Below are positions 1-10,238 of a stretch of 10,238 nt of DNA, piece by piece; positions within the stretch are counted from its first letter, which is position 1; the number at the start of each line of letters is the position of its first letter. The position numbers and the translations under genes are program-made. Under the pieces are notes generated by a model that was not told the origin of the DNA, made no database searches, and saw only the letters and a list, made by a program, of their open reading frames with translations. The DNA comes from a virus. Where the stretch lies: UHGV virus genome UHGV-1552609; one strand, 5' to 3'.

Positions 1-45
1 GAGATTACAAGGTGACTGGAGTTCAGACGTGTGCTCTTCCGATCT
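1..45. other. Illumina TruSeq indexed adapter remnant (sequencing artefact at contig end)
   Basis: Positions 12-45 read GTGACTGGAGTTCAGACGTGTGCTCTTCCGATCT, the TruSeq read-2 primer site. It is preceded by TACAAG at 6-11 (reverse complement CTTGTA, which I recall as TruSeq index 12) and GAGAT at 1-5 (the end of the P7 flank). Recognised from memory of the adapter sequences. Confidence 0.95.
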
Positions 46-718
46 GGGCTTTTTCTTGCTCGCGTTTTTTCATCAATTCCAGCACCCTTTTAGCCGCTCC
101 CATTTGCTCATCATAATCACGTTTATTTATATGAACGTTTGGTTTGCCTTTCTCGTTTCTTTCGTCTGGTGGCGTTTTAGCGCGTACAGCGGCCCTATAC
201 CCGGTCATTGTCATGCCCCATGCTTCAGATTCAGACAATCCCAGGTGAGCAACGGCGGAGTAAACATACTCAAGGATGTCGAATGTTGGCTTGTACTCGC
301 CATCCTGGGTTGTGCCCGTGTCTTCTTCTGGACCGTCACCAATTAAACCGTGATACATACAGTGTTGCGCCAGCGTGATAACGTCGCAGGTTGGCATCAA
401 TCCAGGTTTCAGTCTTAACTTACCCGAAGGAGTAAAGCTGCATTCGCCCAATAACGGGCCTATTTCGCACTCTGAGCAACATTTCAGTACGTGGATGGAT
501 GTTTGCACAAGTTCACCATAACAACGCGCCAGAATGCGATTGCGGAGGTCTGTATCCATTGGCAAACGTTGTGGGTATCTGCCACCGTGAACCGTTGCGA
601 AATATTCGACCAGTTCCCTGTCACTGCCGATCTTAGCCATTGCAGCAAAGCAGGGATTAAATTCGTAACGCCTGCCATCAACTACAACCGCAAACTGTCC
701 TGTTCGAACGTGAATCAT
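46..718 (-). CDS. Hypothetical tail-region protein, 3' end truncated at the contig/adapter junction; its position after the major tail gene is where a tail assembly chaperone usually sits, but that is unverified
   Basis: This is the track ORF 23..727 on the minus strand. The track start is GTG at 727; the ATG at 718 has a better Shine-Dalgarno (AGGGTG, 6-nt spacer). The last 7 residues (QIGRAHV) and the stop codon are encoded entirely by adapter bases 23-46, so the true C-terminus is unknown. The central region has an unusual cysteine cluster (KCCSEC...GEC...PTC...QHCMYH). Confidence 0.45.
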
Positions 719-730
719 AGTTGTCACCCT

Positions 731-755
731 AAAAATAAAGGGGCCAAATGGCCCC
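731..755 (-). terminator. Rho-independent terminator downstream of the major tail protein gene
   Basis: On the minus strand the sequence reads GGGGCC-ATTT-GGCCCC followed by TTTATTTTT: a 6-bp GC stem (plus 740-745 pairing with 750-755), a 4-nt loop, then a T-tract (plus 731-739). It lies 17 nt after the TAA stop of the 773..1249 gene. Confidence 0.7.
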
Positions 756-772
756 GATGTTAATATTTGCTG

Positions 773-1249
773 TTACAATACAGGAACGTCGCCAACTGTG
801 ACCTTGCCAGCGCTTTCGCACTCAATGGACCAGGTTGATACATCGTCGTGAGGATCCTCTTCTTTAAAGGAGGTGCAAAGGAACGGACCTTCGGTTACAT
901 CGAGCGGTGAAACAAGTTTCAGCCAGACGTAAGGCTGCGCACCAGTTGTTTCGCCAGGGTTAATAACGTGGCGTTTAAGTGCCTTCTGATTATGAATTTC
1001 TTCAGTACGGGATACGCCGTCACCTGAGAAAGAAACAGATTTGTAAGTGACCATTGATTCTTTGGTGTAGTCTGCTGATTTGTCAGCGGTGGCGTCTGCG
1101 GTTTCCCATTCTACGGAAAGAGATTTGCCACGCATCATGCCTAACGCTTTATAAGCGCTTTCTTCAGGTTTCGCATTAGGGCAGGCGATAGCGTAAAATA
1201 CGGCAACGTCGCGGCCTAAGAACGAACCTTTATCACAAGTCTGAGACAT
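773..1249 (-). CDS. Putative major tail (tail tube) protein
   Basis: 158-aa ORF with an ATG start and a strong Shine-Dalgarno (AAGAGGT, 8-nt spacer). It is the last gene before a strong terminator and follows the head-tail joining genes, which is the usual position and size for a siphovirus tail tube protein. The family assignment is by gene order and size, not confirmed by homology search. Confidence 0.5.
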   Translation of the reverse strand: MSQTCDKGSFLGRDVAVFYAIACPNAKPEESAYKALGMMRGKSLSVEWETADATADKSADYTKESMVTYKSVSFSGDGVSRTEEIHNQKALKRHVINPGETTGAQPYVWLKLVSPLDVTEGPFLCTSFKEEDPHDDVSTWSIECESAGKVTVGDVPVL

Positions 1250-1262
1250 GTTTATTTACCTC

Positions 1263-1649
1263 TTATCTAGATATGATGGTTTGGAAAGCTACGGTGAAAA
1301 TAAAGCGCCCTTCTCTTGTCTGCATTGCAGGAATAGCGCCAATTGGTTTCATGTGTGTAATTTTATCAGTTTTATACTCGGTTATCATACTTTGGCGTAT
1401 TGCGTCGGCGAGATCTTCCACTTCACTAATATTTGCATCGTTACGCGCTGAAATAACCAGGATGCGGAAATAGTCACGGGTTACTGCTTCTTCACCAGCC
1501 GCACCGCCGTTTTGCTGTATGACAATGTACCTGTCGTTATTAGAATTGGATCGCTCATTCCAGAAACGGGCCTGCAAAATATAACCTTCGTCGTACCCGT
1601 GGGACTTAATCCAATCCCTTATTTCGTCATATACTTCGCTGCGTTTCAT
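1263..1649 (-). CDS. Putative tail completion / tail terminator protein
   Basis: 128-aa ORF whose ATG overlaps the upstream stop in an ATGA arrangement (1646-1649), indicating translational coupling. It sits immediately upstream of the major tail gene. Function is inferred from position only. Confidence 0.4.
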   Translation of the reverse strand: MKRSEVYDEIRDWIKSHGYDEGYILQARFWNERSNSNNDRYIVIQQNGGAAGEEAVTRDYFRILVISARNDANISEVEDLADAIRQSMITEYKTDKITHMKPIGAIPAMQTREGRFIFTVAFQTIISR

Positions 1650-2086
1650 GTTTTGTAACCTTCTACAATCTCTTTATAAATATCGTCAGCGTTGTTTGGA
1701 TCTTCAAATGCATTACGCAAAAATTCCGGCTCCGCGTTTGGGTCCCAATAATTACCCTTACCAGTGCCGCCGCCAAATTCGACGCCCTCTCTGGTTTTGC
1801 CGAAATGTTTGCGCGGCTGGCCTTTTAATTTACCCGGCATGTCATGCACCCATTCAGCGTAACGGGCCGTATATCCCAGCCGTAATTGCATACCCTCCGC
1901 CGTGTTACCTATATACTGAAATTGACTGTTAATTAAAAAACCCGTGTCAACTGGGGTCATGTTCGCCGCGAAGCCACCAGCCAGCATCCCTACTCGCCAT
2001 AACACCTCATAAGTTTTCTTGTCTGTGATTTCCTTTAGCTCCTGCTTTAATCGCTCCCTGACACGTTTGACGCCCTTAATAGGCAT
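1646..2086 (-). CDS. Putative head-tail joining protein, HK97 gp10-like
   Basis: 146-aa ORF with an ATG start preceded by AGGGGG (6-nt spacer). It contains a VDTGFLINS motif that I recall as resembling the DTGxLxxS signature of the HK97 gp10 family, and it sits in the neck gene cluster. Confidence 0.5.
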   Translation of the reverse strand: MPIKGVKRVRERLKQELKEITDKKTYEVLWRVGMLAGGFAANMTPVDTGFLINSQFQYIGNTAEGMQLRLGYTARYAEWVHDMPGKLKGQPRKHFGKTREGVEFGGGTGKGNYWDPNAEPEFLRNAFEDPNNADDIYKEIVEGYKT

Positions 2087-2088
2087 AA

Positions 2089-2457
2089 TTAACCCCCTGT
2101 AACGATCTTATAATCCGGCGTGTCGTTAAATATACTCATGTCCCATTCAACGATCCCGGTTATAAAGTTGGCCCCAGCCGCCAGCGGGTCAGCAATAGCA
2201 GTAGTGTCCCCAGTGGCAATCATCCACCCTTTTTCCGGGCGCTGTACTGGCTGCATCTTGTGAAGCAGTTCGGTATATACGGTTATCGTGTTGCTAACCT
2301 CATTCCCGTTTGCGTCTGTTGCGGTTCCGTCAGTGCGTTCCCATGCACAATCAATAAGATATGGCGTTCCGTATACGTCTGAGTTTGTCCAGTCGTCACG
2401 CGTTACGGGGTAAATGGTGGCTAATGCCTTGTAACTGAATCTCGCGATCTTACTCAT
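2089..2457 (-). CDS. Putative head-tail adaptor / head closure protein
   Basis: The track ORF is 2089..2463 (124 aa). The first ATG at 2463 has only a 2-nt spacer after GGAG, whereas the second ATG at 2457 has an 8-nt spacer, so I favour 2457. The start overlaps the end of the upstream 61-aa gene. Function is inferred from its position between the capsid and tail genes. Confidence 0.4.
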   Translation of the reverse strand: MSKIARFSYKALATIYPVTRDDWTNSDVYGTPYLIDCAWERTDGTATDANGNEVSNTITVYTELLHKMQPVQRPEKGWMIATGDTTAIADPLAAGANFITGIVEWDMSIFNDTPDYKIVTGG

Positions 2458-2635
2458 AGCCATAGCTCCATTTGACGATTTTCGGATGGGTTTTCGCCAC
2501 GCGTGGGCAAAGAATCACCCATTCGCCAGCGTCATTGAGATATGCCGCAACCTGTCGCCCGGTGTCAGTCTTCACCCATACGCGGGTAAACAGTTTTGGC
2601 AATAACGGATCCGGTAATGTAAGGTCATTCCACAT
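2450..2635 (-). CDS. Small hypothetical protein (61 aa) in the head-tail joining cluster
   Basis: ATG start with a strong Shine-Dalgarno (GGGAGGA, 7-nt spacer) lying 2 nt after the stop of the upstream gene; same strand and tight coupling with its neighbours. No recognisable motif. Confidence 0.45.
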   Translation of the reverse strand: MWNDLTLPDPLLPKLFTRVWVKTDTGRQVAAYLNDAGEWVILCPRVAKTHPKIVKWSYGYE

Positions 2636-2637
2636 TG

Positions 2638-3024
2638 TTACATCCTCCCGCTTTTACCTATCCACAAGCCAGCGTGCGCGGTGTTTTCTGGATCTGCTGG
2701 AATTAATTCGGCTGTACAGTGATTCTTATCAAGGGAGTAAAGCAACGAGTGTGCTGCCTTCCATTTTTTATTGAAATCGACATAGCGGTATGACTGGCTT
2801 GCACCGTTCGTACCAGTATGCGAGGAAACGTATTTGTTAGCCTGGGTGAGCCCCAACAGGCCAATCAGGTAAAGTTGAATTAATGTTGCAGTGGAGGCCG
2901 GATAGTTGGCATCAAGGCATTCGTTAACGCTGTTTGCCTGCTCCACCAGCAATGATAAGATAACGTCTGGCAGGTCAATACCCTGGCTTTCAAGATATTC
3001 CCGCGCCTGTTCTGTAGTGACCAT
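2638..3024 (-). CDS. Putative head-tail connector / head completion protein
   Basis: 128-aa ORF with an ATG start preceded by GGAG (8-nt spacer). It is the first gene after the terminator that follows the major capsid gene, the typical location of head-tail connector genes. Function is inferred from position. Confidence 0.4.
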   Translation of the reverse strand: MVTTEQAREYLESQGIDLPDVILSLLVEQANSVNECLDANYPASTATLIQLYLIGLLGLTQANKYVSSHTGTNGASQSYRYVDFNKKWKAAHSLLYSLDKNHCTAELIPADPENTAHAGLWIGKSGRM

Positions 3025-3042
3025 TTTGTTTGCTCCACATAC

Positions 3043-3071
3043 AAAAAAAAATCCCCGGCATCGCGCCGGGG
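3043..3071 (-). terminator. Rho-independent terminator downstream of the major capsid protein gene
   Basis: On the minus strand the sequence reads CCCCGGC-GCGAT-GCCGGGG, then A, then nine T residues: a 7-bp GC-rich stem (plus 3053-3059 pairing with 3065-3071), a 5-nt loop, and the T-run at plus 3043-3051. It lies about 20 nt after the MCP TAA stop at 3092-3094. Confidence 0.8.
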
Positions 3072-3091
3072 AGTTACAGGAAGCGTTCTAA

Positions 3092-4144
3092 TTAAGAATT
3101 TTTGCCGTAAACGACACCGGAACGGCCTAACATGTCGCAGGTGATTTGTAAACCTTCGGCAGACATGATTTTGAAGTTATAGTTATCAGTCGGCATAAAG
3201 CGCGGTACAGGTACAACGCCAGTAGTCATACCGATCAGCGGGGTGATGACATCACGGCGGCGCTGATAAGCAATAATTTCATTTCCTTTCAGTGCAAAGG
3301 TCTGGCGGATTTCACCTACCGGGGCGAACGGCATAACCGTTTGCAGCACGCTACCAACCACAGCACCGTTAACGATGTGCGGACGTGCCAGGTTAGCCAT
3401 GATTTCAGGTGATACCCACATAACATCATATTTAGCAACGAAGTTATTGCGGGCCAGAACGCCGAATTCACCAATGGTGAAGAAGTCGATCAGTGCGTCA
3501 AATTGCGCAGTGGTCAGGTCAGTTGTCAGGGTCAGTTGCTGGGTGTTTTTGTGGTTTTTAATACCCATAGCTTTATGACCATCAACCTTGATGTTTTCGT
3601 TACCGTTCAGATAGAAGTTAACGCGTGCTTTGTTGAATTTTTTCAGTTTCAGGCGCTGGCTGTCAAGGGCAAGGTCAATGCCTACAGTATTCAGGCCCTG
3701 AGCAAGACGCCAGTTGACACCATAACCAGCCGCGAACATCGGGATCGGGTCGCCATCGCTGCCGTATTCGGTGTGATCAAAGCCGTGCGGTGCCTGGCCA
3801 TCCATAGACATTACGACTTCATCGTTGATGTCACCGGATACGCTGTACATTTTCAGCGTTTTACCGATAGGCAGTACGGTTTGAACACCCATCAGGTCGT
3901 TGACGATTTCAATACCGATTTCCTCGGTGTTCAGTTCGATGATCTGGTTATCGATTTCTTTCCAGAACTCTTTTGCGAAGCCACCAACAGCGTTGCAGGC
4001 CAACATTTCAGAAGTCATGTTTGCTTTGTTCGCTGCAATCATGGCGTCATGTTGAGCGTTGAAGATATTGCGTTGCGCCCACAGTTCGTTCCAATGGCCC
4101 TGCATACGGGCGTTGGTAGCAAGGTTTTCTTTGGTAAAGTACAT
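3092..4144 (-). CDS. Putative major capsid protein
   Basis: 350-aa ORF with an ATG start preceded by AAGGGG (6-nt spacer). It is followed directly by a strong intrinsic terminator, which is typical of a highly expressed capsid gene, and it sits after the portal, minor head and scaffold genes. Its size fits an HK97-fold capsid protein. No homology search was run. Confidence 0.6.
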   Translation of the reverse strand: MYFTKENLATNARMQGHWNELWAQRNIFNAQHDAMIAANKANMTSEMLACNAVGGFAKEFWKEIDNQIIELNTEEIGIEIVNDLMGVQTVLPIGKTLKMYSVSGDINDEVVMSMDGQAPHGFDHTEYGSDGDPIPMFAAGYGVNWRLAQGLNTVGIDLALDSQRLKLKKFNKARVNFYLNGNENIKVDGHKAMGIKNHKNTQQLTLTTDLTTAQFDALIDFFTIGEFGVLARNNFVAKYDVMWVSPEIMANLARPHIVNGAVVGSVLQTVMPFAPVGEIRQTFALKGNEIIAYQRRRDVITPLIGMTTGVVPVPRFMPTDNYNFKIMSAEGLQITCDMLGRSGVVYGKNS

Positions 4145-4161
4145 GTTTTTCCCCTTTTAAA

Positions 4162-4584
4162 TTAAGCGACGCGAACTCGGATGAAGTCTTCTGCGGTCAG
4201 GGTCACATCTTCCTGGCAGAATGCAATGATTGGTGCTGAGCCGCCTTCCACAGCAGAAGACAATTTAGCGCCATCTGCCGCAAGGGAAATGGCTGCGCCT
4301 TTGGCATAAGTGGCCTTAGGAACACGGAGAGCAAACTCACGCCCCTGTTCCACATAATCGGCTACAACGGTTGCATTTGCAGCGATTGCATCAGCAATGG
4401 TTTTACCTTCATGGAATGCCGGGTTAACGATATACAACTGTCCCTTGCCAACATCAGCAGGGGCCGCTTTAACGAATTTACCGCCTTCAAGTTTAACCAG
4501 TTCACCAGGTTTTAATTCAGCACCAGCGAGGCGGGTTTCTGTGATGGATTTACCATCAATATTTACACGACGAAAACGAAACAT
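4162..4584 (-). CDS. Small head protein (140 aa), possibly a head decoration or accessory capsid protein
   Basis: ATG start preceded by AAGGGG (6-nt spacer), within a TAA-TTAAAAGGGGA junction motif that is also found upstream of the capsid gene. The protein is Ala/Gly/Val-rich and lies between the scaffold and capsid genes. Function is inferred from position only. Confidence 0.35.
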   Translation of the reverse strand: MFRFRRVNIDGKSITETRLAGAELKPGELVKLEGGKFVKAAPADVGKGQLYIVNPAFHEGKTIADAIAANATVVADYVEQGREFALRVPKATYAKGAAISLAADGAKLSSAVEGGSAPIIAFCQEDVTLTAEDFIRVRVA

Positions 4585-4600
4585 TGTGATCCCCTTTTAA

Positions 4601-5890
4601 TTAGAAATAAGTGTTAAAGTCTGGTACTTCGCCTTTTTTACCTTCGCTTGCTGCGTTGGTTGCCATCGGCGCTGCTTTGCCCAGGGATTTAAACATTGCT
4701 TCTAACGCTTCACCACTTAATGCGTTAGCAACAATTTCGCCGTGTACTTTTGCTACTGCGGCGCGTTTTTCTGCTACTTCTTTATCTGCGTTTGCTGCGA
4801 TCTCTTCTTTAATCGCTTTCTGGTTGGTCTGCAATTCTTTTTGGTTGGTCTGTAATTCTTCAACGCTTGCCTGTACTGGTTTAAGTGCTTCAGCTACTGC
4901 ACTGGCGATATTAGCGGCTAAACCTTCGTTAATTTCTTTTACCAGTTCGGCGCGTTCTTCTTTGGTCAAAGGCATGGGTTCACCCTCCGATTTATTGGCC
5001 TTAATTTTTTCATTCAGGGAGAAAAGATTAGATAAGTGTTCAGCGAACTGAGCGAACCACGATTTACTTTCCTCATTGGTTGCAAGCTCGCCATTATTGA
5101 GAATTATTTTATCAGCCTGTTTTTCATACGTGCAAACTTGAGCACTTTCAGTATTAGTGGCGATCGTCACTTCTTTATCAGTGAAGTCCACCACATACAC
5201 ATAATCGGCATCAGGGAATAATTCCCGCGCCGCGTCAGTTAATTGTTTCTCAAGCGTGCGATAGCTGTTTTCTTTCATTGCCACCGCCATTAACGGCTTC
5301 GCCTGGTCAGTGTTAACCATCAGGCCAACACCCTGTTCTGGCGATGCGGCTGGCGGTTCATGAAGTAGGATGGCGTCATGGTCGATTGACATGATTTTAA
5401 CCACGCTGTCAGCACCCTGTGCTTTCATTTCTTCAGTAGCTGGCATACGCTGACGATATACGGCAACAGATGACCAGATCGGATCTTTGCTTTCACCTTT
5501 TTCCAGTGCTTCGAGTCGGCTTAATAATTCGCGACCTTGTTCTGAATGGCTGGCGGTTTCAACATCCACCCATTTTTCCACATAAACACGGTTGCCACGT
5601 AATTCAACATTTCTGTTCCACGCTCCGCAAAAGCCAATATTCAGACCTTCCGGGCTAAATGCGGAAACAAATTCACCGTCTACGGTAGGATGACCCAGCG
5701 GCGCAAGCGTACCTTCCAAAGATTGATAATTAGCAATGATTTCAGCTTCCGGGTAATATTCCCGATTCATAACGATATTAAAGGGCAACGTATACGACGG
5801 AACCACAATGTGTTCGCGACCGTTATATGTTTCCCGGCGGATGGTATTAGCGGTTAATTTGGTATTAACCTGAATCAGTTCTTTATTCAC
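4601..5890 (-). CDS. Putative capsid scaffolding protein with an N-terminal domain of uncertain function (possibly prohead-protease-like or DUF2213/XkdF-like, from memory only)
   Basis: The track ORF is 4601..5905 with a TTG start. A GTG at 5890 lies 5 nt after the TAA of the upstream gene and has GGGAG 8 nt upstream, so I favour 5890. The C-terminal half is Ala/Glu/Lys-rich and helical in character, with a tandem ELQTNQK-ELQTNQK repeat, as expected for a scaffold. The N-terminal region contains GREHIVVP...YYPEAE. Confidence 0.5.
   Translation of the reverse strand: MNKELIQVNTKLTANTIRRETYNGREHIVVPSYTLPFNIVMNREYYPEAEIIANYQSLEGTLAPLGHPTVDGEFVSAFSPEGLNIGFCGAWNRNVELRGNRVYVEKWVDVETASHSEQGRELLSRLEALEKGESKDPIWSSVAVYRQRMPATEEMKAQGADSVVKIMSIDHDAILLHEPPAASPEQGVGLMVNTDQAKPLMAVAMKENSYRTLEKQLTDAARELFPDADYVYVVDFTDKEVTIATNTESAQVCTYEKQADKIILNNGELATNEESKSWFAQFAEHLSNLFSLNEKIKANKSEGEPMPLTKEERAELVKEINEGLAANIASAVAEALKPVQASVEELQTNQKELQTNQKAIKEEIAANADKEVAEKRAAVAKVHGEIVANALSGEALEAMFKSLGKAAPMATNAASEGKKGEVPDFNTYF
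4820..4861. repeat. 21-bp tandem direct repeat (2 units, 2 mismatches) inside the scaffold gene
   Basis: Plus strand 4820-4840 ctggttggtctgcaattcttt and 4841-4861 ttggttggtctgtaattcttc. On the minus strand these encode ELQTNQK twice; both mismatches are synonymous. Confidence 0.9.
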
Positions 5891-5895
5891 GGTTT

Positions 5896-6840
5896 TTACT
5901 CCCAATCTTCGCCATATTTAGCGTGCGCAACCTTATAGTTTTCTTGCGCCCGATCTAATATTCGTTTGTTTAATATGTTACCAGATTCATCGACCATCAC
6001 GGTAATAGTGCTACATTTGCAGTTAATTGAATTTGGGGATCTGCTCCACCATTCGCGCTGCTCTTCTATGGTGTACGTTTTCCCGTGCCGCTGTGCGTGT
6101 GATAACCTGGTAGTCGGTGACAGTGCAGAAATGTGCATCTGCATAGTGCGCAAGTTAAGCTCATCCGATGCGGCCTCTGCCTCATCCATACGAGCTGTGC
6201 GTAACGCTGTGCATATTTCAGTACGGGCAATACGTTTACACCTGTATAGCGGCAATTGCGTTTCCTGCTGCAATGTGCGTGCTATTTCCAGTGGGTTTAA
6301 GCCACGGGCCATGCCTTCAGTTAATCGGCGAGCCATATCCTTCTTGATCTGTGCTGTAAGCCCGCGCATCTCTTCAAATACACGGGTACGGACCAGGGCA
6401 AGGCGTGTGCGATATGTCTGACTGGTTAATACCGCCGACACTTCTGGATAAGCTCTGGAATATGTGACTGACTGGTTAGAGAGGTTGGCATATTCCTGTG
6501 AAGTGCCGCGCTGATATGCCACCTTCACGTAATTCTGCCAGAACCAGAAGTTTTCAGGGTCTGTTAACTCGAATATTTCATCAATCATGTCGCTGGCGTC
6601 TTCCAGCAAATCATGCAATTCGTCAATGTAGATCTGGAAGGTGTACTTCTTATTAACAGCCAGGGTATATTGTATTCTGTCCAGTATGGCAATATACGGA
6701 TCCGCGACTTTCTTCAGGCAGGCTTTAAAACGCTTGATAGCTCCCGACCGTAACTTACCTGTCATGGTCGGGTCTTCGGTGTTAGATGGCATTATAGCGG
6801 CTGGAGGTATTCGCCTGATTATCTTCTTCACCTTCATCAT
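5896..6840 (-). CDS. Minor head / head morphogenesis protein, Mu F-like (SPP1 gp7 family)
   Basis: 314-aa ORF with an ATG start preceded by GAGGA (5-nt spacer). It lies immediately downstream of the portal gene, as in SPP1 gp6/gp7 and Mu, and overlaps the portal 3' end by about 59 nt. The region GLNPLEIARTL...RIARTE resembles the Mu F-like domain as I recall it. Confidence 0.65.
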   Translation of the reverse strand: MMKVKKIIRRIPPAAIMPSNTEDPTMTGKLRSGAIKRFKACLKKVADPYIAILDRIQYTLAVNKKYTFQIYIDELHDLLEDASDMIDEIFELTDPENFWFWQNYVKVAYQRGTSQEYANLSNQSVTYSRAYPEVSAVLTSQTYRTRLALVRTRVFEEMRGLTAQIKKDMARRLTEGMARGLNPLEIARTLQQETQLPLYRCKRIARTEICTALRTARMDEAEAASDELNLRTMQMHISALSPTTRLSHAQRHGKTYTIEEQREWWSRSPNSINCKCSTITVMVDESGNILNKRILDRAQENYKVAHAKYGEDWE

Positions 6841-8152
6841 CGTTTTCCTCTTCCGTTTCTACTACACTGGCAGGGCCATCGTATCCGGCAGCCTCGCGGA
6901 TCTCGTCACCGCTAAATATTTCTTCACCAGTAGCCAGACAAGCCTGATTGATTTGTGCCATTTTGTATGCCGCTTCCAGTAGTTCGGCTTTAGTCATGGC
7001 GTTCAGGTCGTCCCATATAACTGATACATCAATTGGCATACTGATAAGGCGGAGATCTGCCATCTTGCGGAATAGTTCCTCAAGCTCGCCTCCGATTTCC
7101 TCGCGGCGGGTCATACAGCGGCTGTTGAAGTAGCGGAGATCTTCGGTTGATGCGCGTTCGCCCTGCTGGTTACCAACCAGGATGCGGGTCGGAATATCAA
7201 TACCAGCGGCGGCAGTTTGCAGGTTTACGTCATAGGTTGCTGACGGGTCAGATACGGCAGTCACTAGCGGGCTTACTGTTGCCCCCTGTAATGCCATCAT
7301 CACGTCGTTACCCTTATTCATTTCAGCCGCTGCCTCGTTGAATTTTTCGCGCAGCTCTGTGACGTCGCATCCGTATGTTGCAGCCAGAGAACGGAAATCA
7401 ATTTCTTTATCGAACGAGATAGCAAGTTGACGTGCTGCGTTTTTCAGGAATGATTCACCGCTGCCGCCTTCCACTTTCTCCAGCGAAACGAATGCGTTAT
7501 AGGACGGCTCAAGGAAAGCAATGGCATCATCAGAATAATCACCGAAGATAAATATGCGATCTGGATGTATCTTTCTTGCTATGGTCTTATTGTTAATGCG
7601 CTCCTTGTATTCCCACCATGTAGGCAGGCCATAGTTTTCTTTATCCGGGTTTTCTTCGAAGTCCTTCGGTGTAAGAGCACCAGCCCATACGGGGGTAAAT
7701 TTGGCAATGCCTACGCCTTTTGTTACTGGCTGATCCCACGGCTGGTTATCTCTGACATGAATTAACAGGCCAGCATAACGACCGATGAGGCGGCGGCGGT
7801 CGCATTCGGCAATGACACGCCAAAATCTGTTATCAAATTGTTTCTTGATTTCTCTTTCCCAGGGTGTTTCCGTTTCGGCTTTCTCGTCTTCGGTTCCTTC
7901 AATCATCGTTGGCCTGGTGCGCCAGCAAGTTGTGATAATCTTTTCTACAGCACCATGAGCGATACCACCGCGCCTGTACAGTTTGTATAGATCGTCATAC
8001 GTGATCTCTTCTTTGAATCCGTATTCACTCCACGCAGCATCGCGTTTGGCATCTATCCCCATAGTGAATGGGTTGGCGGCTGCATAGCGGGCGTAGGCCG
8101 CCTGGCGTTGAGACAAGGCAGCATTAACCGCCAATTCTAAATTGGATGGCAT
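6782..8152 (-). CDS. Portal protein
   Basis: The track ORF is 6782..8173 (463 aa). The ATG at 8152 (MPSNLELAV...) is preceded by AGGAG with an 8-nt spacer, whereas the first ATG at 8173 has no Shine-Dalgarno. Its size, its position immediately after the large terminase gene and its strongly acidic C-terminal tail are consistent with a portal. Confidence 0.7.
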   Translation of the reverse strand: MPSNLELAVNAALSQRQAAYARYAAANPFTMGIDAKRDAAWSEYGFKEEITYDDLYKLYRRGGIAHGAVEKIITTCWRTRPTMIEGTEDEKAETETPWEREIKKQFDNRFWRVIAECDRRRLIGRYAGLLIHVRDNQPWDQPVTKGVGIAKFTPVWAGALTPKDFEENPDKENYGLPTWWEYKERINNKTIARKIHPDRIFIFGDYSDDAIAFLEPSYNAFVSLEKVEGGSGESFLKNAARQLAISFDKEIDFRSLAATYGCDVTELREKFNEAAAEMNKGNDVMMALQGATVSPLVTAVSDPSATYDVNLQTAAAGIDIPTRILVGNQQGERASTEDLRYFNSRCMTRREEIGGELEELFRKMADLRLISMPIDVSVIWDDLNAMTKAELLEAAYKMAQINQACLATGEEIFSGDEIREAAGYDGPASVVETEEENDDEGEEDNQANTSSRYNAI

Positions 8153-8230
8153 AATGTTTACTCCTGAATACATGTTTACGCGTTGCTACGCGAAAAATAG
8201 AAAAACTTGTGGGGGATTGTGAGGCAGATT

Positions 8231-9709
8231 TTAAAATCCGCGCAGGCGCTTCGGTAACATGAGGCCCATCGCCTGTGGCTGGCTTAATTCGGTAATACCC
8301 CAGACCATTGCGTCCATACGGTCAGGGGATTTTTTGGCTGTAGCTGGCACGTATTCCATCATTTGATTTTCCAGCGTGTACAGTTCACCAGTGTGTGCCA
8401 CCCTTCCTTGCGCATACAGTGCAGATATTGGTTCGGCACGGGCGAATTTACCTTTGCTTGCGTGCACCTTAACAATGCGGCCTTTGAATCCGGCATTGCG
8501 TAGTGTGGCCTCTGCCATGTCACCGCCCTGGTTGGTTTCGATAACCATCGCGTCAGCCTCATGGATGTCATAGGCATTCATTGCTGCGTGCGCCCAGTCG
8601 TTAGGCGACATGCGGCCTGAATAGTCACCATCAACAGAATACTGAGCATTCTTGCCGCCACCATAGGCGGAACACGCCATGATCCCCGTTTCGTCCGATT
8701 CTTCCGATGAGGTTGTCGCCGGGTCGATGGCTATTACCGTGCGGATCTTGTCCTGCGTTATCTGCATCCGGTGCGCTGCGGTTATCATTGCTTCAGTCCA
8801 CAATGCGCCTTCTTCGTCGAATTTACGCGGGCGCTGCATGTACTGGGCCTCAAATGACCGCCTGTGTGCTTTCAGTCCAGCTTCATGGGCGTCATTGTGC
8901 TTTTTAGGCCATAGCCAGCCATCTGGCAGGTTGTGAGCGATAGGGATAGCGAACTCGTTTTCAGGGTACAGATCCCAGTAGTCCAGACCGTTATCGATCT
9001 TCACTGGCAGGTTCAGGTGATACCACTTTTCACCGCTTCCACCGCGTAGCAGGTAGCCTGACAAATCATCGTAGTGGATGCGCTGCATGATGACGATAAC
9101 AGGCGTCGTTTGCACTGCCAGACGTGAAGCAAGCGTGTCGTTATAGTTGGTATTTACCTGCTTTCTCACAACATCGGAGTAAGCGTCAGCGGGTTTTAAT
9201 GGGTCGTCTATGATTAACGCGCCGTTAAATCCCGGTTCCATATACCCGGCACGGAACCCAGTTACCTGGCCCAGCGATGACGTTGCATACACGCCGCCAC
9301 CGTATTCGGTCCACCACATCGATTTTGAGTTTGCATCGTTGCGGATCTTCATGGGCCACATTGCCTGATACTCAGGCGTGCAGATCATGTTTCTTACGGT
9401 CGAGGAATTGAGTAGTGCCAGGTTGTTGGAATAGGAAACGTGAAGGAATCGTGTGCGGGGATTTATTGCGAGGGACCGCGCCATCATATTGATAGTGGCG
9501 ATCATGGTTTTGCCGTACCCTGGGGGGATGTTGATGATGAGTCGGGTTATCTCACCTTTGATAACGCGTTGCAGTGCGTCGCGGATAGCTAAATGATGGC
9601 CTGAGATTAACATCTTCGTTCCATTCGCTTGCTTGTAAAAGTAGCGATTGAAAAACAGGCCATCGTTTTCACATTTGGACTGAATTACTCGTTCTCTGAT
9701 TGTCAACAT
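8231..9709 (-). CDS. terL: Terminase large subunit
   Basis: The track ORF is 8231..9715 with a GTG start. The ATG at 9709 has GAGG 8 nt upstream and lies 2 nt after the small terminase stop. There is a Walker A-like P-loop (PPGYGKT) near the N-terminus, and the C-terminal region contains an AIDPA motif and acidic residues typical of the terminase nuclease domain. About 490 aa, immediately downstream of the small terminase gene. Confidence 0.9.
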   Translation of the reverse strand: MLTIRERVIQSKCENDGLFFNRYFYKQANGTKMLISGHHLAIRDALQRVIKGEITRLIINIPPGYGKTMIATINMMARSLAINPRTRFLHVSYSNNLALLNSSTVRNMICTPEYQAMWPMKIRNDANSKSMWWTEYGGGVYATSSLGQVTGFRAGYMEPGFNGALIIDDPLKPADAYSDVVRKQVNTNYNDTLASRLAVQTTPVIVIMQRIHYDDLSGYLLRGGSGEKWYHLNLPVKIDNGLDYWDLYPENEFAIPIAHNLPDGWLWPKKHNDAHEAGLKAHRRSFEAQYMQRPRKFDEEGALWTEAMITAAHRMQITQDKIRTVIAIDPATTSSEESDETGIMACSAYGGGKNAQYSVDGDYSGRMSPNDWAHAAMNAYDIHEADAMVIETNQGGDMAEATLRNAGFKGRIVKVHASKGKFARAEPISALYAQGRVAHTGELYTLENQMMEYVPATAKKSPDRMDAMVWGITELSQPQAMGLMLPKRLRGF

Positions 9710-9711
9710 AA

Positions 9712-10107
9712 TCACACCTCGTCTTCTACTTCCTGGACGATGCGGGCGATCTCTTCTTTCGTGACTTCAACCTGGACTGGCGCTTCTTCCCTGTTGCCGA
9801 CGATCTCCTGCGTGACGCGTTCACCATATTTACGCGGTTGCAGTTTTGCCAGTAACCATTTACGCGTTTCAATCATCAAATGATGTCTGTTCAATTCTTC
9901 CTTTTTGATGTTCTCTGGCGCATCAGCAAGATCGATAATCTCATCAGCCAATACCTCAAAACCGATCTCCTTCGCGCGCATATACATGTCCGAAAACTCT
10001 GGCACATCACGGAACCACTTGAGGATTGTTGAACGTGCAGGCATACCAGGCATCTTCGAAATTTTGTTAATGCTTTCGCCGTCCGACACAAGCTCGCAGA
10101 TCTCCAA
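9712..10107 (-). CDS. terS: Terminase small subunit (5' boundary uncertain; conserved coding appears to extend upstream to about 10200 with no in-frame start)
   Basis: The protein has a helix-turn-helix-like N-terminal region (ICELVSDGESINKISKMPGMPARSTILKWFRDVPEFSDMYMRAKE) that matches, from memory, the conserved N-terminus of many small terminases, and it sits directly upstream of the large terminase gene. The only available start in the track ORF is TTG at 10107, which would cut into this conserved region; see the corresponding finding. Confidence 0.75.
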   Translation of the reverse strand: MEICELVSDGESINKISKMPGMPARSTILKWFRDVPEFSDMYMRAKEIGFEVLADEIIDLADAPENIKKEELNRHHLMIETRKWLLAKLQPRKYGERVTQEIVGNREEAPVQVEVTKEEIARIVQEVEDEV

Positions 10108-10238
10108 TGCCTTTTCTTCTGAATAGCCATGTGGACGGCCCGTCTTTTTGGCTGCTGGCTTTTTATCGTCAGCCTTTGCCTTTTTATCGCCAAAGTTCCT
10201 TTATGGTTTCTTCAAATTCATGATTGATACCGGGTTTA

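Follow-up and report, generated by a model that had tools for sequence, protein, structure and literature searches.

Why should the small terminase gene (terS) of a phage carry a conserved N-terminal coding region and no start codon from which to translate it? The question is raised by one end of the virus genome UHGV-1552609, a stretch of 10,238 nt that we refer to as the window.

The small terminase frame and its missing start

The minus-strand frame of terS reads ATG (10221-10219) AAT TTG AAG AAA CCA TAA (10203-10201) AGG AAC TTT GGC GAT AAA AAG GCA and, further on, GCA TTG (10107-10105) GAG ATC TGC, which translates as MNLKKP* RNFGDKKAKADDKKPAAKKTGRPHGYSEEKA LEICELV. Reading this frame base by base from the TAA at 10203-10201 down to the TTG at 10107, we found no in-frame ATG, GTG or TTG; the open reading frame listing gives a TTG-started ORF of 131 aa (9712..10107, minus strand). 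The motif cgataaaaag occurs twice in this region, at 10189-10180 and at 10168-10159. Additionally, another minus-strand frame comes in from off the window (KPGINHEFEETIKELWR*) and stops at the TAA at 10186-10184. An earlier account of this locus, made from the letters alone and called here the sequence-only reading, had described the start-less frame in the same terms, and on re-reading its coordinates and sequence statements were all correct to the base.

That account had also taken the peptide upstream of the TTG for the genuine conserved N-terminus of the protein, and homology bears this out. The segment KKAKADDKK...GRPHGY is conserved in relatives, with the residues from KKAKADDKK on being identical or near-identical across all of them, and the non-terminase part of the upstream peptide is confined to its first five residues, 'RNFGD'. 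The stop-free translation matches the Pfam family PF20901 (Sf6_terminase) with 124.1 bits against a gathering cut-off of 27, covering profile positions 1-106 of 106 with residues 26-132. Because this alignment begins at Tyr26, six residues upstream of the TTG-encoded Leu, a start at the TTG would cut into the conserved domain. The TTG (10105..10107, minus strand) is an internal codon, Leu31 of a 161-aa TerS, and no start codon; Leu is invariant at this column. Homologues could have been expected to begin at the residue equivalent to the TTG if the short ORF were the real gene, as the sequence-only reading had noted, and in all relatives the annotated Met lies 30 residues earlier. The stop-free and start-free stretch upstream of the TTG is real and no chance effect.

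The surroundings of the gene are those of a phage packaging module. terS lies directly upstream of the large terminase gene (terL), with the terS stop at 9714-9712 and the terL ATG at 9709, and downstream of terL we observe portal, Mu-F-like, capsid and tail genes that are collinear with those of phage mEp044. Compared with the small terminases of the mEp021 group (mEp021_50 AXN54169.1, mEp554_78 and MagusPhagus CDS0053, the relatives' proteins being 161 aa long), the window protein is 87-99% identical from Lys5 to the stop; it shares with them the position of terL directly downstream at the same 2-nt spacing, and its own PF20901 match is full length. What differs is that the window is without the first four codons and the ribosome binding site (RBS), and has foreign DNA instead. 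By its sequence, the gene product is an unexceptional small terminase of the Sf6 type, and would as such be expected to bind pac DNA as an oligomeric ring and to stimulate TerL.

Divergence from related phages and the origin of the contig head

Positions 46..10186 of the window (minus strand) are authentic phage DNA and comprise the module for packaging, head and tail of a coliphage of the mEp021 group (mEpimmI), from terS to a gene for a DUF6246 protein. The mEpimmI phages are a group described in PMC11893012. The window is 86-92% identical over 96-99% of its length to mEp044, mEp010, mEp554, mEp515, mEp021, mEp013 and MagusPhagus, and related prophages are found in 25 complete E. coli chromosomes; the phage is an unremarkable mEpimmI phage. 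All 32 matches (7 phages and 25 E. coli prophages) start at query base 53/54, which corresponds to window 10186/10185, and none reaches further upstream. When the terminal 89 nt were searched against phages by blastn set for distant matches, only chance-level matches were found upstream of base 53. It was this comparison with the nearest related phages, proposed as a check by the sequence-only reading, that decided the question.

In each of the seven phage genomes terS is a 486-nt, 161-aa ORF, and in these genomes as well as in two inspected prophages it is a single uninterrupted ORF from a normal ATG. The aligned DNA of the relatives reads AGAGGTGAAnT-ATG GCC CGC ACT/ACG AAA AAG GCA AAG at the start of the gene, encoding MARTKKAKADDKK... 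(MARTKK...), with a Shine-Dalgarno sequence, AGAGGTGA-n, before ATG GCC CGC ACT/ACG AAA AAG. Collinearity of the window with the relatives starts at the A5 run; the sequence before the run is unrelated to theirs. Both A5 runs are unchanged in length in 7/7 aligned phage relatives and in L013, a second assembly of the same phage that is presented below. Alignments with the relatives and L013 show that the window holds terS without its 5′ end (9712..10186, minus strand), that is, the last base of codon 4, codons 5-161 (K5 at 10185-10183) and the TGA stop (9714-9712). Absent are the RBS, ATG GCC CGC and codon 4 up to its second base.

The sequence that stands in their place comes from a gut bacterium of the Bacteroidales. 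Window 10238-10185 is identical at 54/54 positions to bases 371-424 of a Phocaeicola vulgatus contig (L008), and this foreign head (10185..10238, minus strand; 54 nt) lies inside a helicase gene, at codons 121-139 of 1057. The P. vulgatus ORF encodes a 1057-aa superfamily-1 helicase with the Pfam domains AAA_11/AAA_12. A 28-mer taken from the unmatched head has exact matches in 5 Phocaeicola/Bacteroidaceae genomes and no match among the viral contigs of IMG/VR. By base-by-base extension we located the chimeric junction at 10185..10186 (minus strand), where 'TA' is the sole sequence common to both parents: Phocaeicola identity spans 10238..10185 and phage identity runs from 10186 downward. After ...GGCGATA, Phocaeicola goes on with TGCCCAGC..., whereas the window goes on with AAAAGGCAAAGG..., which is phage. 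The breakpoint between P. vulgatus and coliphage is therefore abrupt, with an overlap of 'TA' and no shared repeat. A 30-mer across it is absent from JGI metagenome contigs and from IMG/VR.

The elements that made the locus puzzling can be read directly from these two parents. The 'blocking' TAA (10201..10203, minus strand) is an out-of-frame triplet in the helicase codons ACC ATA AAG (T-I-K), where the helicase protein reads ...EFEETIKELWRY..., and the ATG of 'MNLKKP' (10221-10219, minus strand) is helicase sequence as well, again out of frame. The minus-strand frame that enters from beyond the window is the helicase frame. The TAA that ends it (10184..10186, minus strand) is made by the junction, as seen by comparing the window with Phocaeicola and L013: the native CGA TAT GCC has become CGA TAA AAA. 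The sequence-only reading had found the upstream gene boundary unclear, an apt remark. The first copy of cgataaaaag (10189-10180, minus strand) is likewise junction-made, from Phocaeicola 'cgata' and phage 'aaaag'. The duplication of this 10-mer (window 10159-10189) is a coincidence in which only the second copy is native phage sequence.

Sister assemblies and the adapter at the other tip

Using exact-sequence look-up of the window's capsid and TerL proteins, we identified further contigs of the same phage: ENA ERZ773516, NODE_2140_length_10342_cov_5.55 (L013); ENA ERZ28665303, WENC17-2_SAMN06111986_METAG-scaffold_1685, of 10,243 bp (L014); and two Logan contigs of run SRR5091519 from BioSample SAMN06111986 (L015 and L018). 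Neither the portal ORF (463 aa) nor the TerS started at the TTG (131 aa) returned a record in the exact-protein look-up.

L013 132-10317 is identical to positions 53-10238 of the window read on the minus strand, at 10186/10186 bases. Where the window carries Phocaeicola DNA, L013 has ...AATAAATATTGAGAGGTGAAATATGGCCCGCACTAAAAAGG, and its terS start is intact (...GAGAGGTGAAATATGGCCCGCACTAAAAAGG), with GAGAGGTGAAAT-ATG and an undamaged RBS; the non-chimeric phage sequence at the terS start is ATGGCCCGCACTAAAAAGG. The TerS called on L013 is 161 aa long and identical to that of the window from Lys5. The 116 nt upstream of terS in L013 are 74-99% identical to the terS-upstream regions of the relatives, with 99.1% identity to MagusPhagus, and because of these matches L013 represents the authentic continuation of the phage. 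Thus the window has no start upstream of Leu31, and the 100%-identical L013 has both a start codon and an RBS of its own for the 161-aa protein. The missing start and RBS are a property of the contig, the gene and the phage being normal.

Upstream of the terS Shine-Dalgarno sequence the relatives fall into two sequence types, with mEp021, mEp515 and the E. coli 190 prophage ~74-75% identical to L013 and the others 90-99%. This two-type region (L013 16-110; ~1385-1480 in the relatives' loci) contains small unannotated or hypothetical ORFs. It looks like a mosaic boundary adjoining terS, and this boundary may be a contributor to the fragmentation of assemblies there. The closely related prophage of E. 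coli strain 190 (NZ_CP020520.1; L016 877-1186) is probably defective, since its large terminase is annotated as a frameshifted pseudogene.

The sister scaffold L014 (BioSample SAMN06111986) has the window's Phocaeicola head too, and the Phocaeicola-phage junction is thereby present in two assemblies, the window and L014. The gene call at L014 150-527 (window 10089-9712, minus strand) is a 125-aa TerS from the GTG at 10089, even shorter than the TTG ORF. At the 3′ end of L014 (10187-10243) we observed a tail of 57 nt that is non-phage, TCCATACTTTCATAGCGAATACC..., unlike the window's tail and without a match in mEp044 or the other loci compared; it is probably a second chimeric tip. In the Logan assembly of SRR5091519 the phage is present in ~3 kb pieces, and one contig (L018) starts inside terS. 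Fragmentation and differing tips fit thin coverage, and the coverage of L013 is low at 5.55x.

The opposite tip of the window is technical as well. Positions 1..45 (minus strand) are an untrimmed Illumina TruSeq index-12 adapter consisting of AGATCGGAAGAGCACACGTCTGAACTCCAGTCAC, the index CTTGTA and ATCTC, an exact match at 45/45 positions. Adapters were recognized by the pattern GATCGGAAGAGCACACGTCTGAACTCCAGTCAC, a 6-nt index and ATCTCGTATGCCGTCTTCTGCTTG, with the A-tail base before the pattern; TruSeq adapter sequences are tabulated in PMC8362010 (Hi-C 3.0 protocol). L013 continues the adapter in full, through all 64 nt to ...ATCTCGTATGCCGTCTTCTGCTTG and AAAAAA. The exact adapter at window 1-45 means that the contig was built from untrimmed reads. 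Moreover, since the adapter, its index 12 and the insert end position are the same in L013 and the window, the two were almost certainly built from the same reads. The window's adapter string also matches, at 92-100%, the extreme ends of several deposited records of unrelated phages, among them Salmonella phage TS13 (MK249308.1, 23-69), Klebsiella phage phiKp_32 (LC768500.1, 38-74) and Mycobacterium phage Kashi_RDG1 (ON687736.1, 53-90), and these records are adapter-contaminated too.

The adapter reaches into the last phage gene, which encodes the DUF6246 (Pfam) homologue of mEp044_90 (23..727, minus strand). The gene is deprived of its last codons and runs into the adapter, with the protein ending in ...EKAQIGRAHV* in the window versus ...EKARN* in mEp044, and the ORF of the 231-aa DUF6246 call on L013 likewise enters the adapter. 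In both of its terminal ORFs the window is therefore corrupted by technical sequence. Behind the last gene there is a rho-independent terminator hairpin, and the phage part ends within its stem (window 46-60, GCCCGGAATTAACCGGGC; 'T12' in mEp044, L019 10738-10778). The window turns to adapter after GCCC and L014 departs 4 nt earlier, so that both break at the T12 hairpin, and this shared break may reflect a drop in coverage at the structure.

Origin of the start-less gene

Both parents and the exact breakpoint are established, as are the adapter and the intact copy in a second assembly, and we are highly confident that the start-less terS is technical, and that a Phocaeicola chromosomal fragment was joined to the end of a low-coverage contig from an mEp021-like coliphage or E. 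coli prophage. On this reading the window is a complete raw metagenome contig with technical sequence at both tips and a phage body at 46-10186. At its terS end, a chimeric library molecule would have joined a P. vulgatus fragment to the phage at the third base of terS codon 4, presumably in vitro by fragment-to-fragment ligation or by PCR template switching in TruSeq library preparation. One or a few reads starting in Phocaeicola and running into the phage would then have led the assembler to extend the contig tip along them. This swap deletes the RBS and ATG GCC CGC AC; the TAA that it brings in happens to fall in frame, and the ATG that comes with it has no meaning. The gene proper of this phage starts at GAGAGGTGAAAT-ATG and encodes a normal 161-aa Sf6-type small terminase, MARTKKAKADDKK....

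At least one physical chimeric read must exist because an overlap of 2 nt cannot connect two paths in a k-mer graph, and its existence explains why the junction recurs in L014; the occurrence of the junction in two assemblies also makes an assembler-only error unlikely. The window shares with chimeric or adapter-contaminated tips of short-read metagenome contigs the abrupt taxonomic switch, 2 nt of microhomology, a foreign overhang (54 nt) of less than one read, the position at a contig end, low coverage, adapter sequence at the opposite end and a second assembly that lacks the junction. Nothing sets it apart from this class, of which it is a textbook case, the position of the break at a gene start being the sole coincidence.

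We considered whether the breakpoint of a technical chimera could nevertheless be a preferred physical end of the phage DNA, a pac-type initiation cut at the 5′ end of terS in an Sf6-type, headful-like system, whose end was open to blunt ligation with a bystander Phocaeicola fragment. Phages of the P22, Sf6 and SPP1 types have their pac sites within or beside terS, the TerS studied here is in the Sf6 small terminase family, and the break lies ≤11 nt from the start codon. This origin would map the packaging start site of mEpimmI phages if true, but we regard it as very unlikely: as the sample carries the label METAG, what was sequenced may be a prophage without free ends, the Logan contig breaks ~150 nt further in, and the other tip is an ordinary adapter read-through in a terminator hairpin, as thin coverage alone would give. 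The paper on mEpimmI phages (PMC11893012) contains no report on termini or packaging mode. Even less likely, and in our estimate very improbable, is a recombinant that truly arose in vivo, in which a coliphage or prophage took up Phocaeicola DNA just upstream of terS and was left with a terS that would be decapitated and probably dead. The junction is found in two deposited assemblies and illegitimate recombination can use 1-2 nt of microhomology; however, intact phage sequence runs across the junction point at 100% identity in what is almost certainly the same dataset (L013), and the donated DNA comes from within a helicase gene of a Bacteroidales chromosome. To our knowledge, E. coli phages do not infect the phylum of Bacteroidales. 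The contig also ends 54 nt into the donor, with adapter at its other tip and with the junction absent from the JGI and IMG/VR contigs searched.

The sequence-only reading had offered four causes for the start-less frame, namely a base-call error or nonsense mutation at the TAA, an indel in an A5 run, a truncated protein started at the TTG, and recoding. None of them is right, the contig end being a chimera. One extra base in the first A5 run would formally bring the TTG at 10193 into the terS frame, but both runs are A5 in L013 and in 7/7 phage relatives, and the sequence upstream of 10186, which holds the TAA, the ATG and the TTG at 10193, is entirely Phocaeicola and without homology to the relatives' terS region; a point or homopolymer error in terS is accordingly excluded. 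Excluded as well, with the lowest probability of all, are recoding, whether by stop readthrough or programmed frameshifting, and a truncated TerS from the TTG at 10107, for which the open but start-less frame is all that speaks. No relative has a stop or a frame change there, and all have a conventional ATG with the AGAGGTGA Shine-Dalgarno sequence. The nearest purine-rich run lies almost directly before the TTG at 10107, with hardly any spacer, and translation from this codon would lose the first six positions of the Pfam domain together with the whole Lys-rich arm. Programmed recoding sites, such as the G/GT -1 frameshift of tail chaperones or readthrough sites, are superficially the same in having conserved coding past the first usable start, A-rich runs and an in-frame stop; they differ in that here the stop and A-run context is conserved in no relative and the upstream sequence is from another organism.

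Two more specific links between frames were rejected because the sequence upstream of 10186 is Phocaeicola. These are a -1 slip or an A5 to A6 correction that would link the TTG at 10193 (frame 2, after AAGGA) to terS, and a prfB-like +1 shift out of the incoming frame at CTT TGG.

The chimeric contig end remains a useful case for quality control, in that a low-coverage metagenome contig with untrimmed adapter, or with a chimeric tip from a single read, can mimic a start-less gene. Such tips can also imitate recoding candidates and cross-phylum mosaicism, and a truncated TerS call from the chimera is already in public collections (L014, 125 aa). Screening contig tips for adapters and checking for abrupt taxonomic switches before terminal ORFs are read would remove such false leads. 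In the window, the stretches to be trimmed or marked are 1-45 and 10187-10238, and scaffold_1685 of ERZ28665303 deserves a mark too, together with its 125-aa TerS. For the phage itself there is nothing biologically novel in the locus: both the small terminase gene and its start are ordinary.
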